Origin: a virus
DNA length: 64,000 bases
Virus record (IMG/VR): IMGVR_UViG_3300045988_174371
Span: 128,001 to 192,000 of that record
Direction: 5' to 3' (one strand)
Shown here: one piece after another, positions 12,215 to 32,143 of the stretch
How the letters are laid out: the number at the start of each line of letters is the position of its first letter
How positions within the stretch are numbered: position 1 is the stretch's first letter
The notes under the pieces: model-generated
What the model saw: the letters and a program-made list of their open reading frames with translations, nothing else
Database searches by the model: none
What the model was told of the DNA's origin: nothing
Made by a program: the position numbers and the translations under genes

Positions 12215-12988
12215 CTAGATAGAAAGCTTATCCACTACTTCCCAGCAGGCGGGGTCGAACTCGCGCCCCAGCTCATCATAGAAGGTGTTGAGCTCACTAT
12301 GCGCCCACTGCACATAGTTAATGCTCTTGTCAATGTCGAACGTCATTTCGAGGGTGACCTCCATCAGTCGAGCGGCGCACTCTTCATAGGTCTTACCGTA
12401 AATGTTATATTCCTCAGCAGGAGAGGGGAGGCAGAGGGGCTTACCTTTCTCGAAGCTGAACATTTCGGCGTAGACCATACCCAGCACTACACTCAGAGGC
12501 TTATCAGGCGCTTCTGCCTGATAGTCAGCATAACGCTCGGCAAAAGCGTCTAGGCATTCGTGACGCTTTTCCAGCACCCAGCCCCGCGCCTGAGTAAGAG
12601 CGTCCTTAGCGTCAAGCAGGAGGCTGGACAAGGTGTTGGCGGGATTACGGTCGGTTAGCGACAAGCTTAGGTGGTGTCGAGGAATGTCGCTACGTTGGCG
12701 ATAGTGATAGTATGCCGCCGCTTCGTCTTCACTGCTGGCAAAGATGGCGCGGTCGAGCTGGCGAAGACGGTATTCGCGGTCAAACCACATTCGAACATCG
12801 TATTCAGGTGCTTCTTCTTGCAGTACGACGAGTTCATCTTCCCGCATGGGGTAGTCTTCGTAGTATTCACCGTCGGGGAAGATGCCGGACACGGAGAGAG
12901 ATTCGCCATTTAGGGTCTTTTCTGACTTTACGGCGTGAACGTAGAAGGGGGAGTTGATGTTAATGATGTCGCGGGGTGAGACGGGCAT
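12215..12988 (-). CDS. mosaic-family protein, short member (257 aa)
   Basis: Shares MPVSPRDI, WFDREYRL and ECLDAFAERYADYQ with 13233..14312. Its C-terminus (GKPLCLPSP...FDIDKSINYVQW) matches 21011..22090. Confidence 0.65.
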   Translation of the reverse strand: MPVSPRDIININSPFYVHAVKSEKTLNGESLSVSGIFPDGEYYEDYPMREDELVVLQEEAPEYDVRMWFDREYRLRQLDRAIFASSEDEAAAYYHYRQRSDIPRHHLSLSLTDRNPANTLSSLLLDAKDALTQARGWVLEKRHECLDAFAERYADYQAEAPDKPLSVVLGMVYAEMFSFEKGKPLCLPSPAEEYNIYGKTYEECAARLMEVTLEMTFDIDKSINYVQWAHSELNTFYDELGREFDPACWEVVDKLSI

Positions 12989-13044
12989 GTCTAGAACCTT
13001 TCGGCAGGTAGTCATTGCGGGTATGGTATTTACTAAACATTTAC

Positions 13045-13074
13045 AGTGTATCACATATTTCTAGAGGGTGTCAG
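13045..13074 (-). promoter_or_regulatory. cassette-family promoter
   Basis: CTGACA, 18 nt, (TGTGA)TACACT. Confidence 0.55.
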
Positions 13075-13144
13075 GCTCTCTGTTTGGAATACGCCCAGCC
13101 CACGCTAACGCCTAGCTCTTCTAGCTAGTTGGTGTGACCATAGG

Positions 13145-13190
13145 TGAACGCCCTGCGGTAGACCTTGTGTGCCTTACCGCAGGGCGTTCA
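13145..13190 (-). terminator. hairpin terminator of 13233..14312
   Basis: tgaacgccctgcggta pairs with taccgcagggcgttca. Confidence 0.6.
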
Positions 13191-13232
13191 AGCTTTTCGT
13201 TATGCATCACCCCAGCATGGGCGCGCGGGGCT

Positions 13233-14312
13233 TTACAGCCCTGCTTCGTCGTAAATCGCCGCCAGTCGAGAGCGCAACTCACGAACCGCAGTGACCTCAC
13301 CCCTAATGCCCACGATAACGCCATCCACTAGTTGCAACATCTTATTGCGTCGGAAAGCATAGTTATCGCGCTCATAGATAGGCACGTCACCCACACCCTT
13401 TAGTAGCGACTTGAGGCAATCAGAGCCGTCACGGATAGAGCCAGTGAACACATCCCTAAAGATGCCCTCTAGTGAATTGCCTAGGCGGTCGTAGTACCGA
13501 GTTAGCTTGAGGTAGTCGTCAATATCTTTAAGGGAGCCGATAGGTAGAAGCTTTACGGAGGCGGCAAGGATACGGAAAGTATCGTCGCCGGACACTAGCA
13601 ACAAGTGGTTAGGGTTATTAGAGGTGGAGGAAATTACGCCACGGCGTACATCATTCCCACCAATACGGAAGTTCGCCCTAGCTTTCCCATCCACAGTTCC
13701 TAGAACCTTCATGTAACCATCCTGATTACCTTCATAGTAACCAGCGGAGGTCATTTCATAAATACCGCCGCCACGGAGCAATATACCCGGTAGTGCAACA
13801 CAGTCGCTAGTGAACTCAGGGGTAGACACGACAATCTGCTGTCGTGCCTGGTAGTCAGCGTGACACTCTTCAAACGCTTTCAAACATTCGATGCGCCTAC
13901 CCTCAAACCATTCACTTTCATGCAAGAGGATACGCTCTGCTTCATTCAGGAAGTCAAAGGCGGCTTTGGCAGAGTCACGACTCACCACAGACACCCCTAG
14001 CGGGCGCATCCGCGAATCCCCATACCTGGAGTTATTCACGAACGATAGCATCCGACTAAGCAAGGCGCGCATCTCACCAATAATGAGGTTTAGGCGGCTT
14101 TCACGGTCGAACCACTCCTGAGCATCACCCCTGGACACGTTCGTCGCAACCTTCTTAACCTCATCACCCTCATGCAGGGCGCAGGTCACCATCTGGTCGG
14201 TAGCGCGTACCCCCTCAATGGTCACATTGCCGAACTTGTCGGGATTAGAGATGGAATGTACATAAATCAAGCCGCCGCTTACATGCACAACGTCACGCGG
14301 GGAAATATTCAT
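13233..14312 (-). CDS. mosaic-family protein (359 aa)
   Basis: Paralogue of 21011..22090. Shared blocks: WFDRESRLN, EWFEGRRIECLKAFEE, GGIYEM, VKLLPIGSLKDIDDYL. Confidence 0.7.
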   Translation of the reverse strand: MNISPRDVVHVSGGLIYVHSISNPDKFGNVTIEGVRATDQMVTCALHEGDEVKKVATNVSRGDAQEWFDRESRLNLIIGEMRALLSRMLSFVNNSRYGDSRMRPLGVSVVSRDSAKAAFDFLNEAERILLHESEWFEGRRIECLKAFEECHADYQARQQIVVSTPEFTSDCVALPGILLRGGGIYEMTSAGYYEGNQDGYMKVLGTVDGKARANFRIGGNDVRRGVISSTSNNPNHLLLVSGDDTFRILAASVKLLPIGSLKDIDDYLKLTRYYDRLGNSLEGIFRDVFTGSIRDGSDCLKSLLKGVGDVPIYERDNYAFRRNKMLQLVDGVIVGIRGEVTAVRELRSRLAAIYDEAGL

Positions 14313-14388
14313 GAGTAAGACCTTTCAGTAGATTTGAAGCTTGAATGAGTGGCTGGCGTGCCATGTACCCCACTCATGTTATATACAT

Positions 14389-14418
14389 AGTGTATCACAT
14401 ATTATGGATTTACGGCTT
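14389..14418 (-). promoter_or_regulatory. cassette-family promoter (weak -35)
   Basis: AATATGTGA-TACACT. Confidence 0.45.
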
Positions 14419-14868
14419 TCACTGGAATGAGCATTAGGGATTAGCCATAAAGCGTATGAGGAGCCCATAACCGCATCAGTACGGTTATGGACTCCTCATG
14501 TAGCATGGTAATCATGCCGAGCCATAGCCCCTATATGAGAGGGCTAGAAGCCACCGCTAGATGTAAAAACTGAATACTTCCCATTATGCCACTATTCCGT
14601 GTCGTCCGCATCATCCCACACAGGGAGCCAGTCAGGAATGAGCATAAGAACGGCAGACAGCAATATTTGGCGAGTGCAGGTATAGAGGTAGCCCCTTACG
14701 AGATGAGGTTAATACTTTATCTCGCAAGGGGCTACCACCTGAAAGAAGAATATGGAAAGCATTATACCTGCACCCTGGCAGGAAAGCAACTCACCCCTAA
14801 TTCGTGGCGGCAATGCTTGATGGTTGCCGCCTGCGTGTCGCCGTGAGGGTATCAAATGTGAGCCGCAT

Positions 14869-14919
14869 ACAGTAGAGCCGCCTGCATATCCTTAGTGATA
14901 CGCGGGCGGCTCTACTGTA
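14869..14919 (-). terminator. hairpin terminator of 14931..15326
   Basis: acagtagagccgcc pairs with ggcggctctactgt. Confidence 0.6.
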
Positions 14920-14930
14920 CTAGATGTTAG

Positions 14931-15326
14931 CTAGATTCCAAGCTGGTTGGGTACAGCATACTCGATAGAAACGTCAATGAAGTTGATGCCCTGGAAGATG
15001 GATACCTCTTCACCCAGCAGACCCAACGCACCCATGAGCTGTAGGATAAGCTTGTCGGTGTAGTTGATGCGGCTCAGGTCTACGGTTGCGGTAATCTCGG
15101 CAACGGCGTTACCTTCTTCGTCTTCAGCCTCAACGGAGCGCTGTTCTTCATCGAAGAAGTAGAGGGTTGCCTCCGTGTCACCTTCACCGCAGGCAATGGA
15201 GATGGTGCGTGCCTTCTCGCCAAGGGTTTCTGCAAGGCTGTCGGCAGTAAAACCGTCGATAGGGTCGATGTGTGCGGTGAAGCTCTGGGTTTCGCCCTGG
15301 AAGTTGAGGATGGATTCGGGGTACAT
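14931..15326 (-). CDS. small acidic protein (131 aa)
   Basis: Trimmed to the ATG at 15326 behind CCGAAAGG. Confidence 0.65.
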   Translation of the reverse strand: MYPESILNFQGETQSFTAHIDPIDGFTADSLAETLGEKARTISIACGEGDTEATLYFFDEEQRSVEAEDEEGNAVAEITATVDLSRINYTDKLILQLMGALGLLGEEVSIFQGINFIDVSIEYAVPNQLGI

Positions 15327-15358
15327 GCTAGACAGCCTTTCGGTAGCGGTAGATGGTG

Positions 15359-15398
15359 TGTAGCTTTTTCTTTGGAAGCTTTTCTCTTCCTTGCTACA
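15359..15398 (-). promoter_or_regulatory. 5' leader stem-loop
   Basis: Outer stem TGTAGC/GCTACA, inner stem GGAAG/CTTCC. Confidence 0.5.
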
Positions 15399-15403
15399 TT
15401 TAT

Positions 15404-15433
15404 AGTCTAACACATATTTCGGAACGTGTGCAA
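15404..15433 (-). promoter_or_regulatory. cassette-family promoter
   Basis: TTGCAC, 18 nt, (TGTGT)TAGACT. Confidence 0.6.
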
Positions 15434-15533
15434 GTCGAATATGTGTGAAGTGAAACACAGGGCTATTGCGCCTATCTACAGCAGGCGGCAAAGCATCCAT
15501 AGGGCTAGGTAACCCGCCAGGCAAAATGAGCAT

Positions 15534-15584
15534 GGGTAGAGCCCCTTACGCCTAAGGGGTACTTAGGCGTAAGGGGCTCTACCC
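15534..15584 (-). terminator. hairpin terminator of 15603..15995
   Basis: 23-bp stem: gggtagagccccttacgcctaag pairs with cttaggcgtaaggggctctaccc. Confidence 0.65.
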
Positions 15585-15602
15585 ATATGGGGTTTGTTGC
15601 TA

Positions 15603-15995
15603 CTATCCGTAGCGCTCAACACTTTCCTTGATGCCCTCAAGAGTAGACTCAAGGTTTCCAGCCAGGCTCTCAGCCTCACTATTCACGAGGCTAACCTGGA
15701 AGCCATACTCACTATCCTCCAGGGTGCGAAACTGGGTGAGGTTCTTCAGGGCTCGAATACGGGCTTCCATTGCGTCAGATGCGATAACGCGGAGGCGGTG
15801 AATGCTCTTTGCCTTGCTTTGTGCGCGGGCGAAAACTACCGGCGCTACAGATGCGTTTGCAAAGAATAGTTCGGTCTGTGCGTCAAGGTCGCATTCCTTG
15901 GTCAGCTTAGAGGCGGCTTCCAGCGCGTCACTTTCAATCTGAGCCAGGTTCTTCAAGATGTTCTTTGCGCGTTCGTTGATTTCAGCAGTAGACAT
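15603..15995 (-). CDS. helical protein, paralogue of 19501..19902 (130 aa)
   Basis: DLDAQTELFFANASVAPVVFARAQSKAKSIHRLRVIASDAMEARIRAL aligns with the 19501 protein. Confidence 0.65.
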   Translation of the reverse strand: MSTAEINERAKNILKNLAQIESDALEAASKLTKECDLDAQTELFFANASVAPVVFARAQSKAKSIHRLRVIASDAMEARIRALKNLTQFRTLEDSEYGFQVSLVNSEAESLAGNLESTLEGIKESVERYG

Positions 15996-16027
15996 TAGAT
16001 GCTCCTTGCATGTTTAGAGAAACTGTC

Positions 16028-16063
16028 TGTAGCTTTTCTCTGGAAGCTCTCTTCCTCGCTACA
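16028..16063 (-). promoter_or_regulatory. 5' leader stem-loop
   Basis: Sequence identical to the 18422-18457 copy. Confidence 0.5.
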
Positions 16064-16068
16064 CTTAC

Positions 16069-16098
16069 AGTCTAACACATATTTCAGACAGTACGCAA
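16069..16098 (-). promoter_or_regulatory. cassette-family promoter
   Basis: TTGCGT, 18 nt, (TGTGT)TAGACT. Confidence 0.6.
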
Positions 16099-16130
16099 GC
16101 CGAATATGTGTTAAGTGGGACACAAAGACG

Positions 16131-16170
16131 AAAGCCCCTTAGCTGATGTGTTTCAGCTAAGGGGCTTCCC
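16131..16170 (-). terminator. hairpin terminator of 16257..17525
   Basis: gaaagccccttagctga pairs with tcagctaaggggcttcc. Confidence 0.6.
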
Positions 16171-16256
16171 TGTAAGTATACGCGGGCGCTCGCTAAGTGT
16201 CACCCATACACTCATACTGTTAGCAGTGAGGTACTTACCGAGCTACCTGCAACAAC

Positions 16257-17525
16257 CTATTGCTCATTGAGTTCTGCCACCGCTTCGAGAGCTTCACGCA
16301 TCTCATTTAGGTACTTATTGCCTTCGTATCGGGCGTTTCCAACCCTGATGCCCACAATCCGCATTACGGTGTCCTTGAGGTACTGTAAACGCAGGACGCT
16401 ACGGCTCTTCTTAGCGTCGAGCGTCATAGAGCTGAGTTCTTCCAACAGTTCAAGCCAGCGGGGAGTCTTTCGATTTGCAGGCTTTGCCTTCTCTACCTCA
16501 ATTTCATCCTCAAGAAGGCTAATAAACCTGTTGAGGGGTTCCTCCTGTGCTTCGTAGAGCGCATGAATCTCACTCACCGCGTCAGGGTTTCGAGTAGGCA
16601 GAACAGCAAAGCTATTCACGTACACAGGCTCCACAGAGCCGCCCGCCTTCACTAGATGTAGAGCCAGGTCATACTTCACCTCTTCGTCATCGTACCAGTC
16701 TTCAACGTGGACAGCCTTAACGCGAAGGGTACCCACTTCATTGGCAGTAAGGTTCTGCACCTGAAGCTCAGAGTCAGAGCCGCCGGTCACCTGCAAGTAC
16801 TGCACGCCCGAAGCAGTCTCGACAGTCACAATGTCTCCAACGAAGCAACCAATGACAGAGCCGCCGCCCAGCGCGGCACTCCTTAGCTGAATAAACTTTG
16901 CCTCGCTGAGGTCTACTCCTTCAGCCGCGCCGTCCGCGTACTTCTGAACAGCTTCACGCTCATCACGGCTCAACAGACAAATAGCACTAGCCACCGACTC
17001 ACTATGCATATCGAGTGAAGTAACCCAGTGGTGATGTTCACCAGTAATGTAAAGATAGATGCGCTCAGCGTCGCCTAGGCGAATGACATGCGGGTTATTT
17101 CGACCTTCATTTAGGGGTGCAACATCGCACCAATCGCTGAAAGCAGACACACCCTTAGGTAGAGCCAAAGACTTACGAGCACGCACAAGCGCCGCGAAAT
17201 AATCCTTCGTCTCATACACAGCGCCATCCGGGAAAGCACGCACAATCTCAACAACCGCCTCAGGCTTGAAAGACTCACCATCCCTCTCACACGGCGACAG
17301 CTCACCCCAGGTAACGACCTGGCTAAGCGTGAAGCGCGGCGCGCCCGCTTCACCCTCGCAGGCAGTCAGTACACAGCGGGCGCGTGAAAAACCGGCAGGC
17401 TTCAAGATTGCGATACCAGCGCCATCATCCATAGAAAGTACCGTGTACAGACCATACTCACCGCCTTCAACCTCGGTAGTGATGATGACATCGCGAACCT
17501 TGAGGTCAGCAATAGTGATAGTCAT
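16257..17525 (-). CDS. hypothetical protein (422 aa)
   Basis: Long ORF trimmed to the ATG at 17525. The SD is weak. The C-terminus looks like a coiled coil. Confidence 0.6.
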   Translation of the reverse strand: MTITIADLKVRDVIITTEVEGGEYGLYTVLSMDDGAGIAILKPAGFSRARCVLTACEGEAGAPRFTLSQVVTWGELSPCERDGESFKPEAVVEIVRAFPDGAVYETKDYFAALVRARKSLALPKGVSAFSDWCDVAPLNEGRNNPHVIRLGDAERIYLYITGEHHHWVTSLDMHSESVASAICLLSRDEREAVQKYADGAAEGVDLSEAKFIQLRSAALGGGSVIGCFVGDIVTVETASGVQYLQVTGGSDSELQVQNLTANEVGTLRVKAVHVEDWYDDEEVKYDLALHLVKAGGSVEPVYVNSFAVLPTRNPDAVSEIHALYEAQEEPLNRFISLLEDEIEVEKAKPANRKTPRWLELLEELSSMTLDAKKSRSVLRLQYLKDTVMRIVGIRVGNARYEGNKYLNEMREALEAVAELNEQ

Positions 17526-17574
17526 AATGGGGGTACACCCTTTTCTGGAAATCATAGTAGTAAATAATAGGTCT

Positions 17575-17604
17575 AGTGTACCACATTATCGGCGGCAGGC
17601 AGGG
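17575..17604 (-). promoter_or_regulatory. cassette-family promoter (weak -35)
   Basis: AATGTGG-TACACT. Confidence 0.4.
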
Positions 17605-17983
17605 GCACCCCTAGCCAGCAAGCGCGAACAAGGCGACCTAAAGAGTGATAATGAGCAATGGCAGGTGGTAAGCATACAGTAACAGCTCACCGCCTATCAG
17701 CGCTCGCATACCCCCCCCAGCAGTGAGTAGTAGGTGTGCATCATGCAGTGAAAGTCCCATTGGGCGGCGGCTCAGCCTGGCAATAGCCGCGCTACAGCTA
17801 GACTCTAAGGCGACAGTAGGAAGCTACCACCGCATCCCTGGCAGGCAGTCAGCACCCCTAGCAAGGGGTGGCATGTGACAATCATCCAGCAGGCGGCAGA
17901 GTCGCTAGGGCAGGGCGTAGATAGAGACACACCCGCTCACCTCTTCCACCGCTGGCAGTGAAGTGTTTTTCAGGGCGCAAAGA

Positions 17984-18006
17984 AGCCCCTGCTACATGCA
18001 GGGGCT
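17984..18006 (-). terminator. short hairpin terminator of 18041..18388
   Basis: agcccctgc pairs with gcaggggct. Confidence 0.45.
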
Positions 18007-18040
18007 TTCATCTAGGGGTACTTGTTATGCGGTAACCATG

Positions 18041-18388: not shown

Positions 18389-18421
18389 GATGGCAACCTT
18401 TCGGTCTAGGGAGAAACGGTC

Positions 18422-18457
18422 TGTAGCTTTTCTCTGGAAGCTCTCTTCCTCGCTACA
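18422..18457 (-). promoter_or_regulatory. 5' leader stem-loop
   Basis: Outer stem TGTAGC/GCTACA, inner GGAAG-AGAG-CTTCC. Confidence 0.5.
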
Positions 18458-18462
18458 TTTAT

Positions 18463-25889: not shown

Positions 25890-25908
25890 TGTGTTGTGGG
25901 TGGTGTAG

Positions 25909-25963
25909 GAAGAAGGAGCCTCTGGTTTCCCGTGTTTGTGCGGGTTGCCAGGGGCTCCTTCTT
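25909..25963. terminator. bidirectional hairpin between convergent ORFs
   Basis: gaagaaggagcctctgg pairs with ccaggggctccttctt. Confidence 0.55.
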
Positions 25964-25978
25964 GTGTTTGGGGGGGGG

Positions 25979-26803
25979 TTATTCTTCGTAGTCGGGGTGG
26001 TTGGTGATGGTGTTGATGTGGTGGTGGGTTTGGTTGGCTAGGTTGGTGTGTCCTTCTTTGGTTGCGATGTCGTGTACGGTGGTGAGGTAGTCTTTGGTGC
26101 GCCAGAGGATTTCGCTGTCGGATACCCAGTGCATTTCGCCTTCGATTGCGTAGTAGTCGGAGATGTTTTGCCAGAGGGAGGTTAGTTCTTCTTCGAGGGT
26201 TTCTTGGTGTTTGGGGTTGTTTAGGAGGGTGTGGTATTCGGGGTGGGTGAGGGTTTCGTGGAGTGCTAGTGCGGTTTCGGGGGTGAGGGGTGCGGTTTCG
26301 CTTTCGGGGATGTTGAAGGTTTCGGGTAGGGGGTTGGTGTAGGTGAGGGTTGCGTTGAGGACTGCCCAGATGTTGTAGCCGTCTAGGAGGGTGGTGTATT
26401 CGTTGGGTTCGTCGGGGATTGCGCGGGTTGCGTCTCCGTTGAGGGTGTGGGCGATGCTGATGTCGTGGTAGTGTTCGGTGCTGTGCCAGATGGTGATGTC
26501 GCCGTCGTTTTCGATGGCATAGTAGATGGGGGTGGGGGTGTCTTTGCGGGTGCCGATGTTTACGGCTTTGAGCTCTTCGAGGTCGGGGGTGGTGAGTTGT
26601 CCGTTGGTGCGGGTGATGTTGATGGTGTGGGGTGCGTTGAAGCTTGCATGGCGGAGGGTTGCGGTGGCGTGGTTGGTGTCGGTTACCTGGTCGATGGCGT
26701 AGATTGCCATGCGGTCGTCGGTCTCTTCGTTGGTGGGGGTGAAGAGGATTCCGTCGTTGGTGTTGAGGGTTTCCCAGTAGAGGAAGGGGGTGATGGTTCG
26801 CAT
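25979..26803 (-). CDS. hypothetical T/N/H/P/E-rich protein (274 aa)
   Basis: ATG behind GAAAGAGAG. Promoter at 26907-26936. It is encoded on the A/C-rich strand. Confidence 0.6.
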   Translation of the reverse strand: MRTITPFLYWETLNTNDGILFTPTNEETDDRMAIYAIDQVTDTNHATATLRHASFNAPHTINITRTNGQLTTPDLEELKAVNIGTRKDTPTPIYYAIENDGDITIWHSTEHYHDISIAHTLNGDATRAIPDEPNEYTTLLDGYNIWAVLNATLTYTNPLPETFNIPESETAPLTPETALALHETLTHPEYHTLLNNPKHQETLEEELTSLWQNISDYYAIEGEMHWVSDSEILWRTKDYLTTVHDIATKEGHTNLANQTHHHINTITNHPDYEE

Positions 26804-26906
26804 TGTTGGTGCTCTCTTTCTGTGTTTAATGATTGGGGGGTAAGCCTTGTGGGGCTTGTTGGGTTAGGTGGTGGGTTGAGGTTTTCTCTCAACTCCTTAT
26901 GTTTAG

Positions 26907-26936
26907 ATTGTACCACATATTTGTGATGTATGCACC
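26907..26936 (-). promoter_or_regulatory. cassette-family promoter
   Basis: GTGCAT, 17 nt, (TGTGG)TACAAT. Confidence 0.5.
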
Positions 26937-27050
26937 TTATGGGGTGTGTTTTAGCTCTCTCTTCTATAGGGGGGGGTGGGGCTTTGCTTCTGCGGTGGCA
27001 TGGTGTAGTGTTGGTGGTGTTATTTCCTTTTGTTTTTGGAGGTTTTCCTG

Positions 27051-28052
27051 ATGATTTACGATGTTTTTTCGGCGCGACCTGGGTTTAAGTTTTTTGGGGT
27101 TGATGATGTTCTTCGTTTGCGGTCTTTGGGGGTTTCTAAGTCGTGGGATGAGGTGTGGGACGCTAAGTGTGTTGATGTTGCTGTTGAGGTGTTGGGGGTT
27201 GATGAGGGGTTTTGTTATGGGCGGCTTGAGGATGCTTTTGGTGAGGGGCGTGATGACTGGGAGTATGAGTGTGATGTACTGGATGGTTTCACGTTGGCTG
27301 ACCTTGAGGCTGAGGGGTTGCCTGCTGGTGAGGTGATGAGGTTGTGGGAGTCTGGTCGCCTTGTTGGGGATGATTTTGGTGGCGAGTTGAGGTTTACTCG
27401 GGCTCAGTTCTGGGGTGGGGTTGGTGTGTCTGAGCTGGTGGTGCATGAGGAGTTTTTTGAGGTGTTGGGAGTGTTCCGGCGTTTGGGTGTTCCGGCGGCG
27501 GATGCGGGTGTTTTCCTGTTTGAGCCTAGGGATAATTATGGCTTCCTGGCTCCAGCTGAGTTGTTGCTGTCTGGGGTTGATGAGTTGCGTGATTTGGTAG
27601 TTGCGGATGCTCATGGGTGTGCTATTGAGCGTAGGGGTGTTGGTGTTGTTGATGAGTGGGTGCGTGCGTCTGTGGGTACTGTTCCTGCGCCGGGTGTGGT
27701 GGTTGGCTTGGTTGGTAAGGGCGTTGATTTTGGTGCTGTTTTTGGTGGGGGTTTTGGTGAGTTCCCTTATGAGGTGGTAGGTAGGGTTGCTGAGGGTTTG
27801 GGTATTCCGGTGAGTGTGTTGATGTGTCGTGTGAAGGGTATGCGTTATGGGTTGGGTCGTCGTAGGGAGGGTACGGGCGGGCTTATGGATGAGTTGGAGG
27901 GTTTTGGTTGGTCTGATGGCTCGATTGCGGAGTTTTTGAGGGTTCCGTCGCCGTGGTTTGGTGTGGTTCCTCCGTTGGAGTATGCGCGCCTTGGTGATGA
28001 GTATGTGGGTGCTGTTGTGGCGGTTGCGAAGTTTATTGATAGCCGCCGGTAG
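27051..28052 (+). CDS. hypothetical G/V/F/E-rich protein (333 aa)
   Basis: ATG at 27051 lies 8 nt after GGAGG. The C-terminal FLRVPSPWFGVVPPLEYARLGDEYVGAVVAV weakly resembles DUF2384-type antitoxin C-domains. That similarity is not verified. Confidence 0.55.
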   Translation: MIYDVFSARPGFKFFGVDDVLRLRSLGVSKSWDEVWDAKCVDVAVEVLGVDEGFCYGRLEDAFGEGRDDWEYECDVLDGFTLADLEAEGLPAGEVMRLWESGRLVGDDFGGELRFTRAQFWGGVGVSELVVHEEFFEVLGVFRRLGVPAADAGVFLFEPRDNYGFLAPAELLLSGVDELRDLVVADAHGCAIERRGVGVVDEWVRASVGTVPAPGVVVGLVGKGVDFGAVFGGGFGEFPYEVVGRVAEGLGIPVSVLMCRVKGMRYGLGRRREGTGGLMDELEGFGWSDGSIAEFLRVPSPWFGVVPPLEYARLGDEYVGAVVAVAKFIDSRR

Positions 28053-28186
28053 ACGATGGCTATTTGTGGGGCTGGTGTATGGTTCTAGGAGCCGTGCGCC
28101 AGCCTTCCTTTTGTGCTTTATGCGGGTGTGATTAGTCCCCCGGTGTGCCTGCGTGTGCTGGTTGCCGGGGGACTATTTTGGTGGTG

Positions 28187-28849
28187 TTATTGGGTTTTAG
28201 CGGTGTTGATGATTTCTATGTTCGGTTCATTGGTGGTGGCTTTCTGGATGAGTAGGGTGCGGTTGAGGGCTTTGAGGAAGTGTTTGTGTTCTGGTTGGGT
28301 GATGGCTTGTGTGATGGGTGTTTTGTGGTTGGTGGGTGTGATGGTTATTTCGGTGTGTAGGTTGGTTTCTATGGGGTGGGTGATGGTGATGGAGTGGTCG
28401 GATTGGGGGTTGGTGTGAATGTATCCTCTTGTTAGGCTTGTGGGTTTGGTGTTGGGGCTGGTTGCAGGGGTGTGGTAGGTGTTTTCATGGATGGTGGCGG
28501 TCTTGTGGTGTTGTTGGGCGAGGTGGGCTACTGTTTCGAAGTTGGCGTTGGTGTGGTAGCAGGAGAGGGTTAGGGAGTAGGGTGCTCCGTCGAGGTCAAG
28601 GTTTAGGCTCCAATGGCTCATGTCGAATCCGAGTTGGTGGAGCTTATATTTGAGGGTGAGTCCTTTGATGCCCATGCGTTTAAACGCCTGGTTGTTGCGT
28701 TTCTTGAGTGTGGCGGGGTGTTCGATGATGTCGCCGTGTGGGGTGACTGCGAAGGTGTCGGGGGTTAGTTCGAGGGGGTCTCCTATGTTCATGTAGGCTA
28801 CTGCTATTTTGTCGCCCTTTTCTAGTTTGGTGTTGGGGTTGGCGTTCAT
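28187..28849 (-). CDS. hypothetical protein, paralogue of 29643..30350 (220 aa)
   Basis: Shares the R(N)N..(F/L)KR(M/L)GIKGL.LK.KL..LGFDMS.W core with its paralogue. The C-terminal half is T/H/N/P-rich. Confidence 0.6.
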   Translation of the reverse strand: MNANPNTKLEKGDKIAVAYMNIGDPLELTPDTFAVTPHGDIIEHPATLKKRNNQAFKRMGIKGLTLKYKLHQLGFDMSHWSLNLDLDGAPYSLTLSCYHTNANFETVAHLAQQHHKTATIHENTYHTPATSPNTKPTSLTRGYIHTNPQSDHSITITHPIETNLHTEITITPTNHKTPITQAITQPEHKHFLKALNRTLLIQKATTNEPNIEIINTAKTQ

Positions 28850-28908
28850 TTGAGTATTCCTTTCTTAGGGGCTGGTTAGGTGTTTGCCGTTTGGGGTATC
28901 TATGTGTA

Positions 28909-29592
28909 CTAGAAGCAGTCGGAGATGTCGTAGGGGTCTTCCCCTGCCGCGTTTTCCAGGTACACGCCCTGAGAGATTAGTGCCTTTGCCTCTCTAATGT
29001 TTTCGCTATCCTTTCCGAATAGGTGTTCTAGCACGTCTGAGCTGTTGCTAATAATTGTGACTGGCACTGGTTCTAGTAGGCTCTCTGCGCCGTGCCTGCG
29101 GATGAGTGTGGGGAGCTCTTGCCATGAGATGCGGTCGCCGTTGAAGTAGATATGTGGTTCTACGTTCAAGTGTTCAGACCATTCTAGCGTATCGGCGTTA
29201 GGGGTCTTGGTTAGGTGTTTGCTGATTGCATAGCACCTGTTTTCAGTGGGTGCTTCGGTTTGCGTACACCACTGGGTGACGTTCTGGTAGACCTTTTGGT
29301 TCGCGGGGATGCCGTTGATGCGAACCTCTGAGTCTGGGTGTGTAGTGAAGAATGCTATGGGGTGCCATTCGCTATCTGCGGGGGTCTGAATGTGTATCCG
29401 TTTCTGCCACCCATTTTCGGATTGTTCGCAGGCATGGATACGTTCCATTAGCTCCTTGATGGTGAGGGTAGGTTCGGTGGCTTGGGCTACTGCGCGTCGC
29501 CATAGGCGCTGTCTGTAGTCTTTCGGGCGTGGCTTCAGCATGAGGTTGATGAGCGGGTTTGACGGGGTGTATTTGTATTCGGGGTATTGCAT
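28909..29592 (-). CDS. hypothetical protein (227 aa)
   Basis: ATG behind AAGGAGAAA. Confidence 0.6.
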   Translation of the reverse strand: MQYPEYKYTPSNPLINLMLKPRPKDYRQRLWRRAVAQATEPTLTIKELMERIHACEQSENGWQKRIHIQTPADSEWHPIAFFTTHPDSEVRINGIPANQKVYQNVTQWCTQTEAPTENRCYAISKHLTKTPNADTLEWSEHLNVEPHIYFNGDRISWQELPTLIRRHGAESLLEPVPVTIISNSSDVLEHLFGKDSENIREAKALISQGVYLENAAGEDPYDISDCF

Positions 29593-29642
29593 CTGTTTTT
29601 CTCCTTAGCGGCGTGTAGGGCGGGGCGATATGGGTGGGGTAG

Positions 29643-30350
29643 TTATCTTTCGTTGATGATGACCCAGCTGTCTTCGTATGGGGGTTCTGGGTCGGTTATT
29701 TTCTGGATGTTTGCGTGTTCTTTGAGGTTGGCGTTTAGGTCTTTGAGAAACCTTTGGTGGTCTTCCTGTTTGAGGGCTGTTTCGAGGGTTGAGTGTGGTG
29801 CTGTGGGTTTGACGACTATCTCGTTAAACAGGCGTGCTCCAGGGGTAAAGGTGATAGTGAGGGATGGTTCGCCGTGCGTGTGGGTGCGAATCTGGTGTTC
29901 GGTGTGGGTTGAGTTGTTGTATGAGGTGTAGGTGTCCTCATAGATTTCTGGGTTTGTGTAGTGCAGGTGGGCGAGGGTGTCTATGATTCCTGCTGTGGTT
30001 TGGGTCGTGTTGGTGTTGAGAATGAGGGCGCAGGGGTGATTGTCGGTATCGAGTTCGATGCGCCAGCGGCTCATGTCGAACCCTAGTTTGCGGAGTTTAT
30101 GCTTGAGGATGAGCCCTTTGATGCCTAGGCGTTTGAGGATGCGGTTATTGCGCGCATTGATAGAGTTAGGCATGACAGGGTGTAGGGGTTCGTCAATTGC
30201 GGTGCCGTTAGGGGCATAGTGTCGTTTGCCGATGCCGTCGAAATAGTAGTCAATGGGGTGTTTCTTGGCGTATTCTACGGCAGTGCCTTTGACATTTACG
30301 TAGATTACTTTCACAGTCTCTTCAGTGTTGGTGTTTTTACGGGGAATCAT
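29643..30350 (-). CDS. hypothetical protein, paralogue of 28187..28849 (235 aa)
   Basis: ATG behind GGAAAGGAA. Confidence 0.6.
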   Translation of the reverse strand: MIPRKNTNTEETVKVIYVNVKGTAVEYAKKHPIDYYFDGIGKRHYAPNGTAIDEPLHPVMPNSINARNNRILKRLGIKGLILKHKLRKLGFDMSRWRIELDTDNHPCALILNTNTTQTTAGIIDTLAHLHYTNPEIYEDTYTSYNNSTHTEHQIRTHTHGEPSLTITFTPGARLFNEIVVKPTAPHSTLETALKQEDHQRFLKDLNANLKEHANIQKITDPEPPYEDSWVIINER

Positions 30351-30390
30351 GGCGTGGACGGTTCCTTTCCTTGGCGGGCTTGTTGGTTCT

Positions 30391-30420
30391 ATTGTAGCAT
30401 TTAGGTAGGCTTTTGGCGGA
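30391..30420 (-). promoter_or_regulatory. possible extended -10 promoter of the 30350-to-28187 operon
   Basis: Minus strand AAATGC-TACAAT. Confidence 0.4.
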
Positions 30421-30499
30421 GGTTCTGTAGGGGTGTTCTGTGATATTCTTATGGTACTTACTTTCCTTGTATTTCCTGGTTGTTGTGGAGGTTTTTCTA

Positions 30500-32143
30500 G
30501 TGGCTGATAGTTCAGTTGCGGCTGGTGTTGGTCGTGTTGGTCGGTCTGTTGTGGAGGGGTTGGCTCCGGGGGTGTTTTCGGGTTCTGGGTCTATTGGTGA
30601 GCTGGAGGATGCGGGGTTCAGTGTTGGGCATTTGGTAGATGGTTTCGTGTTGGCTTCTGGCGTGCCGGTTGAGGGTGGGTCGGTGTTGGAGCGTGCGCGT
30701 GGTGTGCGTGATTTTTCGCAGGTTCCTGTTGCTTTCAGGTCTTTTGTGGCTGAGTGTGCTGGGTATGTCTGGGATGGTTCGGTTGTTTCTTCTGTTGGTG
30801 GGGTGTTCCTGCATGGTGGGTTTTCGTTTGGTGTGACTCCTCGGGCTAGGTGGTCTTTTGGTGGTGTCTCGGGCGTTGATTTTGAGGCTGTTCAGGAGGG
30901 GTTTGTTGTTCCAGCTTCGGGGGTTGGTGTTGGTGAGCTTGCTTCGGCGGTCGGTGTTGAGCTGGGTGGGTTAGTTGCTCCGCCTGGCAGGTTAGGGCTT
31001 GGTGCTGGTATTGGTGAGTTGTCTTCGTTTAGGTTTGATTATGATGGGCGAGGTTCGCGTATGAGTTCGACTGAGGTTTCTAATGCTTTGGCTTTGGAGC
31101 AGGCTTCTTATTGGCTGTCTCGTGTCGGGGAGGTTGATGTTGTTTCTCCGCCGCTGGTTGGGGAGTCGCCGGATGTTGTTGCTGAGCGTTTGAAGCGTGT
31201 TAGGCGTGCTTCTAAGGGGGAGAATGGTGTTGCTCCGCGCCTGATGGGTTCACGTCGTGAGGTTGAGATTATGGGGTTCATTGGACTATTTGGCTGGGTG
31301 GACGTTCGCGCTGTAATGCTGTTGCTGGGTGTTTCTACTAGAGTTACTGCGTTGAAGTATTTGAAGGGTTTGCAGGGGCGCGGGTGCCTGGATGCAGTGG
31401 ATGTGCCTGGGCTCGGGCATAGGGTTTGGGTTGGTACCCGTGTCGGGTTGGATGAGTTCGGAATTGGCGGCGCTACGGTTTCTCGTAAGACTTTGGGCAA
31501 CAGCGAGTTTAAGCATAGGGTGTTGGTGAACTATGTGGGCGCTATGCTGGTGAACGGTTCGGTTGATGTTTTGGGCTTGGGTGGGCTTGTCTCTGGTGGT
31601 CGTCTGGTTGGCGGGCAGGTTTCGCGTGGCTTTTCTGTTATTCCTGACCGCGTGATTGACAGTGCAATTCAGGGCATGTTTAGAGGGCGTGCTGGGTATG
31701 ATGTGCGTGATGTGCTACTTGCCCGACGTGGTGAGGTGTTGCGCGAGTGGCGTGTTGCTGGTGGCGAAGGTGTTTCGCCTGAATGTTATGGCGGCAATGA
31801 GTGGATGTGGGCTGTTATGAGCGGCGCTTCGGAGGGCAAGTACCATGTGCCAGATATTGTGTGCATGATTCCTCGTGGTGAGAATGGTGAGCCGCGCAGT
31901 GTTGCCGTTGAGGTGGAGCGCGGGTTTGGCAAGAAGCCCGGCAACCTGGAGAAGATTCTGAGCCAGTATAAGGATGATAGGAGCGTTTTTGGGATGGTGG
32001 TGTGGTTGTGCACTGATGACCGTATGGTGATGAGAGTGAATGAGTGGGCGGAGGCGAACGGGTGTGCTGAGCGTATTCGCGCTGTTCGTTTGTGTCGCCC
32101 TGATGGGTCGGTGTTTGAGGGTATCTCGTCGTTTGAGTTTTAG
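30500..32143 (+). CDS. replication-relaxation (Replic_Relax-like) family protein; candidate relaxase/Rep (547 aa)
   Basis: wHTH-like segment EIMGFIGLFGWVDVRAVMLLLGVSTRVTALKYLKGLQGRGCL, FKHRVLVNY, and KYHVPDIV...SVAVEVERG...LEKILSQY. Recognised from memory, not searched. Start moved to GTG 30500, 8 nt after GGAGG. The N-terminal about 200 aa are a G/V/S-rich low-complexity region. Confidence 0.55.
   Translation: MADSSVAAGVGRVGRSVVEGLAPGVFSGSGSIGELEDAGFSVGHLVDGFVLASGVPVEGGSVLERARGVRDFSQVPVAFRSFVAECAGYVWDGSVVSSVGGVFLHGGFSFGVTPRARWSFGGVSGVDFEAVQEGFVVPASGVGVGELASAVGVELGGLVAPPGRLGLGAGIGELSSFRFDYDGRGSRMSSTEVSNALALEQASYWLSRVGEVDVVSPPLVGESPDVVAERLKRVRRASKGENGVAPRLMGSRREVEIMGFIGLFGWVDVRAVMLLLGVSTRVTALKYLKGLQGRGCLDAVDVPGLGHRVWVGTRVGLDEFGIGGATVSRKTLGNSEFKHRVLVNYVGAMLVNGSVDVLGLGGLVSGGRLVGGQVSRGFSVIPDRVIDSAIQGMFRGRAGYDVRDVLLARRGEVLREWRVAGGEGVSPECYGGNEWMWAVMSGASEGKYHVPDIVCMIPRGENGEPRSVAVEVERGFGKKPGNLEKILSQYKDDRSVFGMVVWLCTDDRMVMRVNEWAEANGCAERIRAVRLCRPDGSVFEGISSFEF

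Follow-up and report, generated by a model that had tools for sequence, protein, structure and literature searches.

The window analysed here is a stretch of 64,000 nucleotides belonging to an element of about 360 kb from human oral metagenomes, which carries plasmid- and conjugation-type genes. The same sequence is carried, letter for letter, by two assembly records, ENA and JGI contigs of nearly equal length, which do not necessarily represent separate samples. In a zone reaching from about 19 kb to 32.2 kb of the window, G and T dominate the strand running outward in 5'->3' direction, to the left as well as to the right of a switch at 23,420-23,565. The following features were distinguished in and next to this zone:

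12215..13054, minus strand: third member of a paralogue family (279 aa), of background composition (32.6% G+V+F+W+L+R+C) and the best outside reference
13233..14312, minus strand: "outside" paralogue (359 aa) on the tail of the left-arm gradient
20295..20744, minus strand: 149-aa left-arm gene on the G/T-rich strand; own-strand third-position skew +0.20/-0.72
21011..22090, minus strand: "inside" paralogue (359 aa), recoded to G/T on its own strand
22101..23419: non-coding left flank, A/C-rich on the plus strand, with a 247-bp duplication and two palindromes CAACCCCTAGAGGTTG
23420..23601, plus strand: switch segment; sign change of the AT skew near 23,420 and of the GC skew near 23,565, with a C/T-rich core between
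23440, 23523, 23540 and 23596, same strand: four iteron-like TCTAGC repeats
23602..24179: non-coding G/T tract
24180..25889, plus strand: G/V-rich gene of about 569 aa, a real gene with the most extreme recoding
25979..26803, minus strand: 274-aa T/N/H-rich gene on the A/C-rich strand; own-strand third-position skew -0.89/+0.94
27051..28052, plus strand: 333-aa G/V/F-rich gene; third-position skew +0.75/-0.93
28187..28849, minus strand: 220-aa T/N/H/K-rich gene, paralogue of 29643..30350 (39% identity, E 5e-28)
28909..29592, minus strand: 227-aa gene with a skew below that of its neighbours (four-fold G+T 0.76)
29643..30350, minus strand: 235-aa T/N/H-rich gene (dN/dS about 0.2; third-position excess of differences, p 1e-8)
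30500..32143, plus strand: 547-aa rep-like gene with a GTG start (dN/dS 0.05)
22713..23126 (minus), 23004..23444 (plus), 23555..24214 (plus), 23761..24516 (minus), 23902..24600 (plus), 24910..25443 (plus), 26447..26926 (plus), 31108..31500 (minus) and 31815..32222 (minus): shadow open reading frames

On the plus strand, GC skew is -0.3 to -0.58 and AT skew +0.3 to +0.76 between about 20 and 23.4 kb; from 23.8 to 25.9 kb the values are +0.6 to +0.76 and -0.86 to -0.94, respectively. GC/AT skew then remains at roughly +0.5/-0.5 as far as about 32.2 kb and lies near +0.1/-0.15 beyond. A and C are depleted on the strand leaving the switch 5'->3' in both arms, whichever strand the local gene occupies. 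At four-fold degenerate sites the plus-strand G+T fraction along the right arm is, by distance, 0.99, 1.00, 0.92, 0.95, 0.76, 0.83, 0.90, 0.69, 0.60 and 0.53; the two innermost genes are at 99-100%, and background is reached by about 10 kb. In the left arm it is 0.10 (21011..22090), 0.35, 0.31 and 0.32 over the first 4.5 kb and 0.38-0.54 further out, to about 8 kb. Counted from the switch, the strong zone covers about 9 kb rightward and 5-8 kb leftward. A mild G/T richness of the plus strand continues for at least 40 kb rightward, not leftward, and the background skew shows no global sign flip across the switch, since four-fold GC skew on the plus strand is positive both far left and far right. 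Thus, the pattern is not that of an ordinary bidirectional chromosome-type origin.

The offset between the AT and GC switches, about 140 bp in the window, is conserved at 120-150 bp in related elements. The repeated YTCTAGC motif is also kept there, with GTTATCT in distant clades. Indels relative to related sequences are not multiples of three in the left flank or in the G/T tract, and differences in the latter are without codon-position structure. Direct reading of the sequence showed that the G/T tract keeps, close to its 3' end, a -10-like TATACT (24130-24135) and GGAG (24169-24172). A promoter-like site pointing left is found at 22740-22712. Divergent transcription or R-loops from the centre could expose the non-template strand, in line with these two promoter-like sites and with the orientation of the left-arm genes and the first right-arm gene, all of which read away from the switch. 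However, 25979..26803, 28187..28849, 28909..29592 and 29643..30350 read toward the switch, yet reach up to 100% G/T at four-fold sites. Plus- and minus-strand genes interleave in the right arm and have the same plus-strand composition at these sites, so that the skew ignores gene orientation. A transcriptional cause is therefore very unlikely.

The same skew domain recurs in relatives from many other samples, with over 60 related contigs produced in many studies and by many assemblers. It is common to all 60-odd related elements, and every long related locus carries it, even where the rep-like protein is only 27-34% identical. In the innermost genes, a G+T fraction of 0.96-1.00 is retained by each of the 17 close and 86%-clade relatives. 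An unskewed island of 3.3 kb with skewed flanks, made up of the rep-like gene and the G/V-gene orthologue, occurs in the clade of 51% identity (L015, L064-L073). A sequencing or assembly artefact, in favour of which nothing was found, has a practically negligible probability in view of the two identical records, the many contigs with the domain and the preserved reading frames.

As the G/T strand is poor in A and the A/C strand poor in T, stop codons are few in several frames. The genes might accordingly be artefacts of a stop-poor strand, or else decaying pseudogenes: composition by itself leaves, for example, 26964..27614, frame f2 of 25979..26803 and the strand opposing the G/V gene without stops, and differences versus relatives are not in excess at third positions in 25979..26803 or 28187..28849. 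Against this, skew in the zone genes is codon-periodic (third > first > second position), indels versus relatives are multiples of three only within the called genes, not between them, homologues of normal composition exist, and full-length orthologues are present in 17-55 related loci. NG86 dN/dS, which is unreliable at such composition, ranges from about 0.05, the value for the rep-like gene, to 0.8. In the shadow frames the strongest skew falls on their own first position or periodicity is absent. The minus-strand frame 26964..27614 was rejected as a gene; it is a shadow antisense to 27051..28052. Thus, the long frames that the initial annotation took as intact stand as genes where named above, several others being shadows of stop-poor sequence. 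The artefact reading holds only for the latter and is largely refuted for the named genes, for which it is highly improbable. These are not pseudogenes: the protein-coding genes of the zone are intact and purifying selection is acting on them.

In the case of the G/V gene, the surrounding open reading frame, 23967..25889, encodes 33% G, 22% V and 11% S, while I, T, N, H, Q and K are absent. A reading of this 640-aa frame as junk was rejected, as it contains a real gene with a normally composed orthologue in a sister clade (605 aa, L015:69-1886, 38% identity). The gene is present in 67 loci and has G/T at 437/443 four-fold sites; its indels are all multiples of three (3, 9, 3, 45/21), its second-position skew is weaker than that at the first and third positions, third positions carry an excess of differences (p down to 5e-7), and dN/dS is 0.33-0.43. 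For 21011..22090, own-strand skew is +0.48/-0.89 at the third versus +0.13/-0.02 at the second position; the frame contains no stop (9 and 62 in the other same-strand frames) and is full length and stop-free in 19 related loci. A third-position excess of differences was also seen for 20295..20744, and 27051..28052 has a dN/dS of 0.24-0.28 and is full length in 32 loci. In 25979..26803, where 128/128 four-fold sites are G/T on the plus strand, one 12-bp indel occurs and the gene is full length in 20 loci; its lack of a third-position excess points to fast evolution. Four-fold G+T is 0.95 and dN/dS 0.66-0.78 in 28187..28849. The mosaic identity of 28909..29592 to relatives, with indels of 96, 3, 3 and 9 bp, all multiples of three, suggests that this gene may be a recent recombinant import.

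Synonymous sites of the zone genes are 76-100% G/T (A/C for opposite-strand genes). As initially noticed, genes on the G/T-rich strand encode G/V/F/W/L/R-rich proteins, with 47-78% G+V+F+W+L+R+C (47.4% for 21011..22090, 58.3% for 27051..28052, 55.6% for 30500..32143 and 77.5% for 23967..25889) versus 33% outside (32.6% pooled over 17 outside genes, range 24.5-42.3%). Genes on the A/C-rich strand are correspondingly rich in T+N+H+P+Q+K, at 34-49% (40.5% for 25979..26803, 49.1% for 28187..28849 and 40.4% for 29643..30350) versus 26% outside (26.4%). At tolerant positions I>V, T>V/A, K>G/R, S>G, A>V and Y>F shifts prevail on the G/T strand and T, N, H, P, Q and K are enriched on the A/C strand; family-invariant residues are kept. 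The proposal that purifying selection works against directional pressure is thereby borne out, conserved residues being retained while synonymous sites and tolerant positions have shifted to the local strand composition.

The paralogy of 21011..22090 and 13233..14312 was confirmed (both 359 aa, 31% identity, E 1e-37, the blocks highlighted in the initial annotation common to both). However, 13233..14312 does not qualify as a copy outside the strong zone: it lies on the gradient tail, with a four-fold plus-strand AT skew of +0.35, G+T of 0.45 and 42% G+V+F+W+L+R+C. The third paralogue, 12215..13054, shares N- and C-terminal blocks with 21011..22090 at 36-41% identity. From the supposed drift to G/V/A/S only the gain of V remains; mostly V and W were gained and I, N and T lost, while G, A and S barely change. 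A count of directional changes between the paralogues, suggested at the outset as a check, is saturated at 31-37% identity and restates composition. It is thus no independent test of the bias, for which the polymorphism asymmetry among close relatives was used.

At four-fold sites of the G/T strand, these polymorphisms show a 3-4-fold per-site excess of C>T, A>G, C>G and A>T, a pattern of which the left arm is the mirror image. In the middle of the right arm the rates are 0.49 for C>T versus 0.16 for G>A and 0.53 for A>G versus 0.14 for T>C; the corresponding ratios drop to 1.4-1.6 outside the zone and to 0.3-0.4 in the left arm. As the excess persists among close relatives, the bias is current and not a fossil. 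The transversions C>G and A>T are part of it, and there is an about 3-fold increase in G<->T exchange. With all sites included, most recent polymorphisms lead away from G/T. We attribute this to constraint on the A and C that are left; an episodic process or fixation bias would fit as well.

In the case of fixation bias, mutations would be symmetric and A/C alleles would be removed from the outward strand, either by selection for an A/C-free strand (a single-stranded intermediate proof against damage by deaminases or nucleases, or protein binding) or by strand-biased mismatch repair or gene conversion. Apart from the net flux away from G/T, minor alleles of the G/T->A/C type occur in 1.7-2.7 of 14 sequences versus 3-5 for A/C->G/T, innermost four-fold G>A and T>C polymorphisms are 4-5 times rarer (0.04-0.06) than outside (0.18-0.21), and the domain is conserved across very divergent relatives. 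Selection would, however, be needed at essentially every synonymous and non-coding site, including the invariably or almost invariably G/T four-fold sites of the two innermost right-arm genes. The smooth decay with distance and the mirrored polarity are predictions of a processive, damage-related process, and low A/C allele frequencies are also expected from fast back-mutation and polarisation error. We therefore consider fixation bias unlikely. The "mutation pressure" of the initial annotation holds as a directional bias, although mutation and fixation bias are not strictly separated by these data.

In the family alignment, the rep-like protein consists of a conserved N-terminal half, a winged helix-turn-helix with MarR-like matches and an alpha/beta domain with invariant H-x-P-D ... 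E-x-E ... K, a PD-(D/E)xK-like motif; the AlphaFold2 model of its C-terminal 372 aa has a pLDDT of 81.8. The gene had been thought to change from low complexity to normal composition along its length. Such a gradient exists at synonymous sites (four-fold G+T 0.90 in 30500..31320 versus 0.69 in 31321..32143). The N-terminal half, being conserved family-wide, is not of low complexity, and the C-terminal part, still at 48% G+V+F+W+L+R+C, departs from normal composition. The amino-acid contrast mainly reflects a difference in constraint, as it recurs in relatives with 93-100% G/T third positions throughout the gene; position accounts for the synonymous gradient only. G+T at first and second positions is 0.62-0.71 in variable columns of the window protein versus 0.41-0.57 in the L015/L067 orthologues of normal composition, and 0.67 versus 0.66 in invariant columns. 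The label Replic_Relax-like describes at best a distant, sub-threshold relationship: the protein had no Pfam match, Replic_Relax (PF13814) did not appear even at E<=10, and 5/10 remote homologues score 16-24 bits, all below the gathering threshold of 25.3. Overall, the core of the earlier interpretation stands, and its paralogue counts, rep-gene contrast and family label need mending.

Conjugation-type genes (T2SSE ATPase, AAA_10/VirB4-like, a weak TcpE match, M23 peptidase) begin 300 bp past the rep-like gene. Together with the winged helix, the nuclease-like motif and the sub-threshold Replic_Relax scores, this location would suit a conjugative oriT with the rep-like protein as relaxase-type nickase, the skew arising from damage to the transferred single strand. 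Transfer of one strand should, however, give the whole element a single polarity, whereas the observed polarity is mirrored about the switch and confined to about 9 kb and 5-8 kb; moreover, no relaxase family match was obtained for the rep-like protein. An oriT is thus quite unlikely.

We consider it probable that intact genes are exposed to a current outward-strand bias caused by single-strand exposure close to an origin. From polarity and repeats we infer origin function, strand displacement and single-strandedness; the neighbourhood of SSB and DnaB genes is in keeping with this. The most likely source of the bias would be the displaced (lagging-template) strand, remaining single-stranded for long near the origin during strand-displacement-like synthesis over about 9 kb of the right arm and 5-8 kb of the left one, and open to deamination-type and other damage. 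The rep-like protein, with its winged helix and nuclease-like domain, is the putative initiator that would bind the repeats. Simple deamination does not explain C>G, A>T or the raised G<->T exchange, and the unskewed 3.3-kb island is not predicted by a purely distance-based model; both count against this mechanism. No deaminase or error-prone polymerase was identified within the window.

In bacteria such as Borrelia burgdorferi, Chlamydia and Lawsonia with its plasmids, codon and amino-acid usage depend on the asymmetry between replication strands (PMC2099444, PMC2031905, PMC2089121, PMC2671203). As there, the strand leaving the switch 5'->3' is G/T-rich, synonymous sites are hit hardest, transcription direction is irrelevant, and proteins gain Val, Gly and Phe on the G/T strand and Thr, Asn, His and Pro on the other. 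Unlike bacterial replichores, the window reaches 99-100% G/T at four-fold sites in a local domain, its background skew has no sign flip, and its AT and GC switches lie apart. Typical bacterial skews are below about 0.2. In animal mitochondrial DNA, the gradient is set by the single-stranded time of the H strand (PMC3269014, PMC2939890). Both systems show C>T as well as A>G on the displaced strand, a gradient away from the origin, strand-tracking amino acids and large skews; the window, in contrast, belongs to a bacterial-type element and not an organelle, its polarity is mirrored about one site, and transversions contribute.

IncQ plasmids (RSF1010/R1162) replicate by strand displacement; their origin has iterons and, on opposite strands, sites of single-strand initiation. 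The central iteron-like repeats, displaced strands of the observed polarity and two outward processes apparently starting on opposite strands about 140 bp apart resemble this arrangement. However, RepA, RepB and RepC gave no homology, and IncQ plasmids, of about 9 kb, are not known to show such skew; the comparison is a mechanistic analogy only. With the Replic_Relax proteins of Gram-positive plasmids the rep-like protein shares the order of winged helix and alpha/beta domain and the plasmid or conjugative setting, but it differs by about 200 additional conserved residues that make up its N-terminal half. Targeted mutagenesis has been engineered with error-prone Pol I at the ColE1 origin and with deaminase-polymerase or deaminase-helicase fusions, its strength fading away from a start site. 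The bias in the window is likewise anchored at a site, strand-specific and fading over kilobases; unlike these systems it is natural, and it appears as an unusually extreme natural case of mutation bias set against selection.

The skew profile was cleanest at four-fold degenerate sites. From about 20 to 23.4 kb the + strand has a GC skew of -0.3 to -0.58 and an AT skew of +0.3 to +0.76, and between 23.8 and 25.9 kb these values change to +0.6 to +0.76 and -0.86 to -0.94, respectively. After 25.9 kb and up to about 32.2 kb the GC and AT skews are about +0.5 and -0.5, and farther right they amount to about +0.1 and -0.15. From the sign of the skew on each arm it follows that the strand leaving the polarity switch 5' to 3' contains little A and C on either side. 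The strong skew is limited to about 19-32 kb and does not extend over a whole replichore. The four-fold GC skew of the + strand is positive both far left and far right, without a background sign flip across the switch.

G+T fraction of the + strand at four-fold degenerate sites, per gene
21011..22090, 359-aa protein, left arm: 0.10
24159..25889 (+), glycine/valine-rich (G/V) gene: 0.99 (437/443 sites)
25979..26803: 1.00 (128/128 sites)
27051..28052: 0.92
28187..28849: 0.95
28909..29592: 0.76
29643..30350: 0.83
30500..32143 (+), rep-like gene, 547 aa: first half 0.90, second half 0.69
32430..33989: 0.60
Background: 0.45-0.7

On the right arm, genes of both orientations are interleaved and have a common + strand composition. 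Thus, the skew ignores the direction of transcription. On this arm it forms a plateau to about 7.4 kb from the switch and then declines; 28909..29592 is off this trend, and the clade of L067, a related locus on another metagenome contig, contains an unskewed island. In intergenic DNA the GC and AT skews are about 0 on the left and +0.1 and -0.23 on the right. Left of 16 kb the intergenic skew is near zero, and in the intergenic DNA of 32144-64000 the + strand is mildly G/T-rich (GC skew +0.04 to +0.14, AT skew about -0.23). This mild richness, which reaches at least 40 kb rightward and is absent leftward, hints at replication mainly rightward from the switch.

The two skews do not reverse at the same position. 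AT skew flips first, and GC skew follows after 120-150 bp in most related loci (about 140 bp in the window), with distances of up to about 320 bp in a small number of them; the two flips are closer together in the most distant group (67-83 bp) and much farther apart, by about 1.5-1.7 kb, in a sister clade of 51% identity (L064-L073). The earlier AT flip leaves a core that is C/T-rich on the + strand (23420-23565 in the window), which points to a functional polypyrimidine/polypurine element or to a pair of start points, one on each strand. Same-strand repeated motifs are present in this core and in the adjoining 100-200 bp on its right side. TCTAGC is found on one strand at 23440, 23523, 23540 and 23596, i.e. 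four times within 160 bp where about 0.06 occurrences are expected; other clades have (T)GTCTAGC and the distant group GTTATCT at the corresponding place. At least three same-orientation direct repeats of one motif, as in iteron arrays, are thus present at the centre, and the TCTAGC repeats read as iteron-like. In spite of the local bias their A and C are retained, and this speaks for a function. As regards an adjacent A+T-rich unwinding element, the G+C content is barely reduced at 23.4-24.2 kb (0.46-0.48). No hairpin or cruciform was found at the switch, and shuffled sequence folds more strongly than the DNA there. A reading of the mirror skew as an inverted repeat or telomere was rejected, as the arms are not reverse complements beyond composition-driven matches. 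The A/C-rich flank left of the switch contains a 247-bp tandem duplication with 91% identity (22979-23058 and 23226-23305), each copy with the near-palindrome CAACCCCTAGAGGTTG (22925-22940; 23172-23187) followed by a stem-loop on the (-) strand.

Stop codons are scarce on a strand that lacks A (or T), and in this region the length of an ORF therefore says little about whether it is a gene. Several frames are open from composition alone, and about ten ORFs in the skewed zone are shadow ORFs. In the real genes the skew is periodic, with values at the third codon position far above those at the second. For 21011..22090 the own-strand skews (GC/AT) are +0.48/-0.89 at position 3 versus +0.13/-0.02 at position 2, and for 25979..26803 they reach -0.89/+0.94 at position 3. 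Relative to three relatives, all indels inside called genes are multiples of three (3, 9, 3, 45 or 21 in 24160..25889; 12, then 96, 3, 3, 9, then 3 in later genes), and those in intergenic and central non-coding DNA measure 1, 2, 4, 7, 8 nt etc. The dN/dS ratios (NG86, against the relatives L002 and L005) are below 1 wherever computable; for 25982..26803 there are zero synonymous differences to L002.

dN/dS of zone genes against L002 and L005
30500..32143, rep-like gene: 0.05-0.06
29646..30350: 0.18-0.22
27051..28049: 0.24-0.28
24159..25886, G/V gene: 0.33-0.43
28912..29592: 0.33-0.71
28190..28849: 0.66-0.78
Conjugation genes beyond the zone: 0-0.08

Differences are in excess at third positions in 24180..25886 (p down to 5e-7), 21014..22090, 29646..30350, 20298..20744 and the rep-like gene. 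This excess is absent in the non-coding G/T tract and in 25982..26803 and 28190..28849, probably because saturation suppresses synonymous change in these two genes or because they evolve fast; the coding evidence for 25979..26803 and 28187..28849 (dN/dS 0.3-0.8) is weaker. Full-length orthologues without internal stops are present in 17-55 related loci. Taken together, four independent criteria (periodic skew, indel lengths, dN/dS with third-position differences, and stop-free orthologues) indicate that the genes of the zone are intact and not pseudogenes, in agreement with the initial annotation. Searches of these genes against Pfam and PHROGs gave no informative match.

The 640-aa ORF 23967..25889, absent from the genes listed in the initial annotation, is a genuine gene as well. 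Translation probably starts at TTG (24180); upstream of it lie GGAG (24169) and a -10-like TATACT (24130) that has been retained. The ORF encodes 33% G, 22% V, 11% S and 9% L and not a single I, T, N, H, Q or K. The protein is made almost wholly of G, V, S, L, F, W, A, P, C, D, R and E and is still coding-constrained. The gene is present in 67 related loci. In the sister clade, a normal-composition orthologue of 605 aa with 38% identity (L015:69-1886) lies upstream of the rep-like gene and has the blocks GGFVPGVSG, AVVDVDGWLWR and GSP(V/I)LGLGVS in common with the G/V protein. Where the L015 protein and that of the window differ, characteristic replacements in the direction of the window are T>V, S>G, T>G, A>V and E>G. 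A PDB sequence search with the unskewed orthologue was empty.

The protein compositions described initially for the two strands were borne out by counting. In genes on the G/T-rich strand, G+V+F+W+L+R+C make up 47-58% of the residues (78% in the G/V ORF) versus 32.6% outside the zone, and in genes on the A/C-rich strand T+N+H+P+Q+K make up 34-49% versus 26.4% outside. The proteins of 21011..22090 and 13233..14312, regarded initially as an inside/outside pair, are indeed both 359 aa long, are 31% identical (E 1e-37) and have the blocks noted for them in common. However, the 'outside' copy at 13.2-14.3 kb is not outside the gradient but sits on its tail. A third member of this family is 12215..13054, and further paralogue pairs are 15603..15995 with 19501..20061 and 28187..28849 with 29643..30350.

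Directional differences at third positions of codon-aligned paralogues, from outside to inside copy
13233..14312 to 21011..22090: A>G to G>A 25:5; C>T to T>C 61:14
12215..13054 to 21011..22090: A>G to G>A 16:3; C>T to T>C 54:5
Outside to outside (control): A>G to G>A 15:8; C>T to T>C 30:22

The alignments do contain the expected excess of strand-directed transitions, but at 31-37% identity the sites are saturated, and the counts therefore restate the composition and are no independent evidence.

Among elements that are otherwise 96-99% identical (L002/L004/L006), the identity to 28151-30400 falls in blocks to 77-84%, and the 359-aa protein of 21011..22090 is only 71-78% identical to those of L016-L028. 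The accessory genes near the centre are thus hypervariable and of mosaic make-up, as recombination, diversifying selection or both would produce.

In the rep-like gene of the window clade the G+T fraction at third positions falls from 0.90 in the N-terminal half to 0.77 in the C-terminal half, parallel to the decrease at four-fold sites. A positional synonymous gradient within this gene, as initially described, is therefore real. The amino-acid contrast has a different background. At variable columns, G+T at codon positions 1 and 2 is 0.70 in the N-terminal versus 0.63 in the C-terminal half, but relatives with 0.93-1.00 G/T at the third positions of either half show this contrast too, and the unskewed L067 shows the reverse (0.44 versus 0.53). 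The contrast mainly reflects a weaker constraint on the N-terminal half. Contrary to what had been stated, this half is not of low complexity; the whole family conserves it, and its motifs include SVLERARGVRDF, ECAGYVWDGS and HGGFSFGVTPRARWSFGG.

G+T at codon positions 1 and 2 of the rep-like gene by column class (60-sequence protein alignment)
Invariant columns: window 0.67, L067 0.66
Intermediate columns: window 0.71, L067 0.57
Most variable columns: window 0.62, L067 0.41

As window and L067 are nearly equal at invariant columns and differ at the others, non-synonymous recoding is seen at tolerant columns only. Read unpolarised in the direction from L015 to the window, characteristic replacements are I>V, L>V, T>V, K>G, A>V, Y>F and S>G.

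The relationship of the rep-like protein to Replic_Relax is distant at best. Neither the window protein nor eight close homologues matched Replic_Relax (PF13814) at E<=10 or any other Pfam family. Remote homologues of the C-terminal ~330 aa numbered 249 in a profile search; of ten that were tested against Replic_Relax, five score 16.4-23.7 bits, short of its gathering threshold (25.3). AlphaFold2 gave a confident model for the C-terminal 372 aa (45 sequences; pLDDT 81.8, pTM 0.79), which predicts a MarR-like winged helix-turn-helix (wHTH) followed by an alpha/beta domain; the full-length model from 9 sequences (pLDDT 39) was unusable. MarR-like proteins were matched in Foldseek with probabilities of 0.97-1.0, and the ZitR hmm with E 1e-3. 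The predicted wHTH DNA-binding domain is a likeness to Replic_Relax, from which the protein differs by the lack of a match at or above the gathering threshold. In the alpha/beta domain, H274, P276, D277, E296, E298 and K303 are invariant in the family and resemble a PD-(D/E)xK nuclease motif. Foldseek of the C-terminal model returned the wHTH only, with no fold match for the second domain, and its putative nuclease-like character is therefore read from the motif.

The bias continues at neutral sites. In all 17 relatives examined, including a clade of 86% identity, the four-fold G+T fraction of the two innermost genes is 0.96-1.00. Polymorphism was analyzed at four-fold sites of 14 close sequences, in columns from window-anchored blastn alignments, with polarisation by in-group majority only. 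Per-site rates in the mid right arm are 0.49 for C>T, 0.16 for G>A, 0.53 for A>G and 0.14 for T>C. The resulting excess of C>T and A>G is 3.1- and 3.8-fold there, 0.3- and 0.4-fold on the left arm and 1.4- and 1.6-fold outside. Transversions are also biased in the mid right arm, with C>G 4.3 times G>C and A>T 8.4 times T>A. In a two-state calculation the predicted C/(C+T) is about 0.22 (observed 0.16) and the predicted A/(A+G) about 0.23 (observed 0.09); the base composition of the mid right arm is thus roughly at equilibrium. Counts over all sites gave more changes away from G/T, which first looked like erosion of the skew. Restriction to four-fold sites resolved this, and we attribute the all-site excess to surviving A and C being constrained sites.

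At four-fold sites of 24159-26803, G<->T polymorphism is 0.17-0.24 per site versus 0.05-0.09 outside (about 3-fold). This excess is mirrored on the left arm as C<->A and is not explained by deamination. In the innermost zone, the frequency of G>A and T>C polymorphisms is lower than outside by a factor of 4-5. Both observations fit a very high forward rate; they are also compatible with a bias in fixation instead of a bias in mutation. Residual four-fold C on the G/T strand (25979-32143) is kept in 26% of cases after a 5' G and 38% after A, and in 5% after C and 10% after T. A deaminase preferring YC would yield such a pattern, which is confounded by codon usage and is a lead only.

In the 51%-identity clade (L015, L064-L073) neither the rep-like gene nor the G/V orthologue is skewed. 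In L067 the island covers 3.3 kb (L067:8000-11500), is A/C-rich in its first 750 bp and then neutral, and is flanked by the skewed centre and by at least 10 kb of skewed DNA downstream. It could result from recent import or from local protection. Relatives at 27-34% identity are skewed; therefore, the unskewed state of L015 and L067 may be the derived one.

Positions 11,011..43,989 are 100% identical to an ENA human oral metagenome contig (360,715 bp) and to a JGI contig (360,588 bp; possibly the same sample). A scan of metagenome contigs yielded 64 related loci on contigs of up to 371 kb. Every long one, including those with a rep-like protein of 27-34% identity, has the mirror-image skew domain. 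With a G+C content of 52% versus 24-32% for Inocles, the element is not an Inocle. Megablast of 26-36 kb against plasmid and phage collections gave no match, two scans of GTDB representative genomes (rep-like alignment; VirB4-like protein) no relative, and tRNA and Rfam searches of the window no hit. Right of the zone lie genes of plasmid or conjugation type (T2SSE ATPase, AAA_31, AAA_10/VirB4-like, DEAD helicase, DnaB, SSB, a large M23 peptidase and, as a weak match in relatives, TcpE). Four family members (L080-L083, IMG/VR UViGs of 56-319 kb) are filed as viral, though the window carries conjugation-type genes.

Further features of the neighbourhood are as follows:
6917..7864, 8691..9653 and 9786..11054 (all -): tandem paralogues of 30-45% identity, all matching phrog_5070 and phrog_7964, both of unknown function
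56066..59542 and 59563..63585 (-): adjacent large proteins, one with an M23 peptidase domain (1158 aa) and one of 1340 aa, with a common region of about 320 aa (25% identity)
699-763, 1759-1823, 2922-2986, 8463-8527, 11789-11853, 15395-15459, 16060-16124, 18454-18518, 19211-19275, 19965-20029: ten copies of an element of 65-100 nt, 60-85% identical, directly upstream of successive (-) genes on the left side

On the (-) strand the ten-copy element resembles a common promoter and 5' leader (...TAGACTATAAATGTAGCGAGGAAGAG...). ORF calls that extend into it produce a spurious N-terminal 'homology' (FTHIRLA..KYVLDYKCS) among unrelated genes.

Overall, the skew has a defined polarity, is independent of gene orientation, declines with distance (partly non-monotonically) and is still being generated or maintained asymmetrically at neutral sites; the central repeats and the neighbouring rep-like gene are conserved. 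The most probable explanation is an origin-like site at the switch with synthesis proceeding outward, in which the displaced strand would stay single-stranded for long over the first 5-9 kb and would gather C>T, A>G and other damage. Iteron-like repeats and the conserved rep-like neighbour are indirect signs that the switch may be a functional origin. Against such an exposure model stand the unskewed 3.3-kb island of the L067 clade, the transversion share of the bias and the missing background sign flip. A bias in fixation or selection for strand purity, transfer from an oriT, divergent transcription and an artefact were considered as other explanations. A more far-reaching proposal, which we regard as rather improbable, is that this family of giant oral extrachromosomal elements keeps a zone of strand-specific hypermutation anchored at the origin, with an enzyme or polymerase instead of passive damage as its possible driver, and with an initiator and a 569-aa partner limited to about 12 residue types (no I, T, N, H, Q, K), and that this zone may diversify fast-evolving accessory genes by the origin.

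Literature searches found neither a local extreme skew domain nor this element family described. We consider as new the degree of the bias, with saturated neutral sites (99-100% G/T) and a reduced-alphabet protein that is still constrained, the local, apparently origin-anchored architecture, and the conservation of this architecture in an undescribed family of giant oral elements. As the same genes are normal in the sister clade and paralogues exist outside the zone, the family is a natural experiment on how far mutation bias can push a protein before function is lost, which residues a protein cannot give up, and how dN/dS and ORF calling fail at extreme composition. The skew domain is an undescribed family-wide feature of the putative origin region, and its mechanism is directly testable.

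Strand bias is known to shape codon and amino-acid usage in bacterial chromosomes and mitochondria (PMC2099444, PMC2031905, PMC2671203, PMC3269014, PMC2939890). The known tilt is slight in some bacteria and strong in mitochondria; here it saturates within a 13-kb zone of an element of bacterial type. With replication-strand asymmetry the window has in common the polarity switch at one point, the G/T-rich strand leading outward on both sides, the independence of gene orientation and the strongest effect at synonymous sites; it differs in that its skew is local and that the background does not have opposite signs across the switch. At neutral sites, C>T and A>G are both in excess on one and the same strand, as with single-strand exposure in mitochondria.
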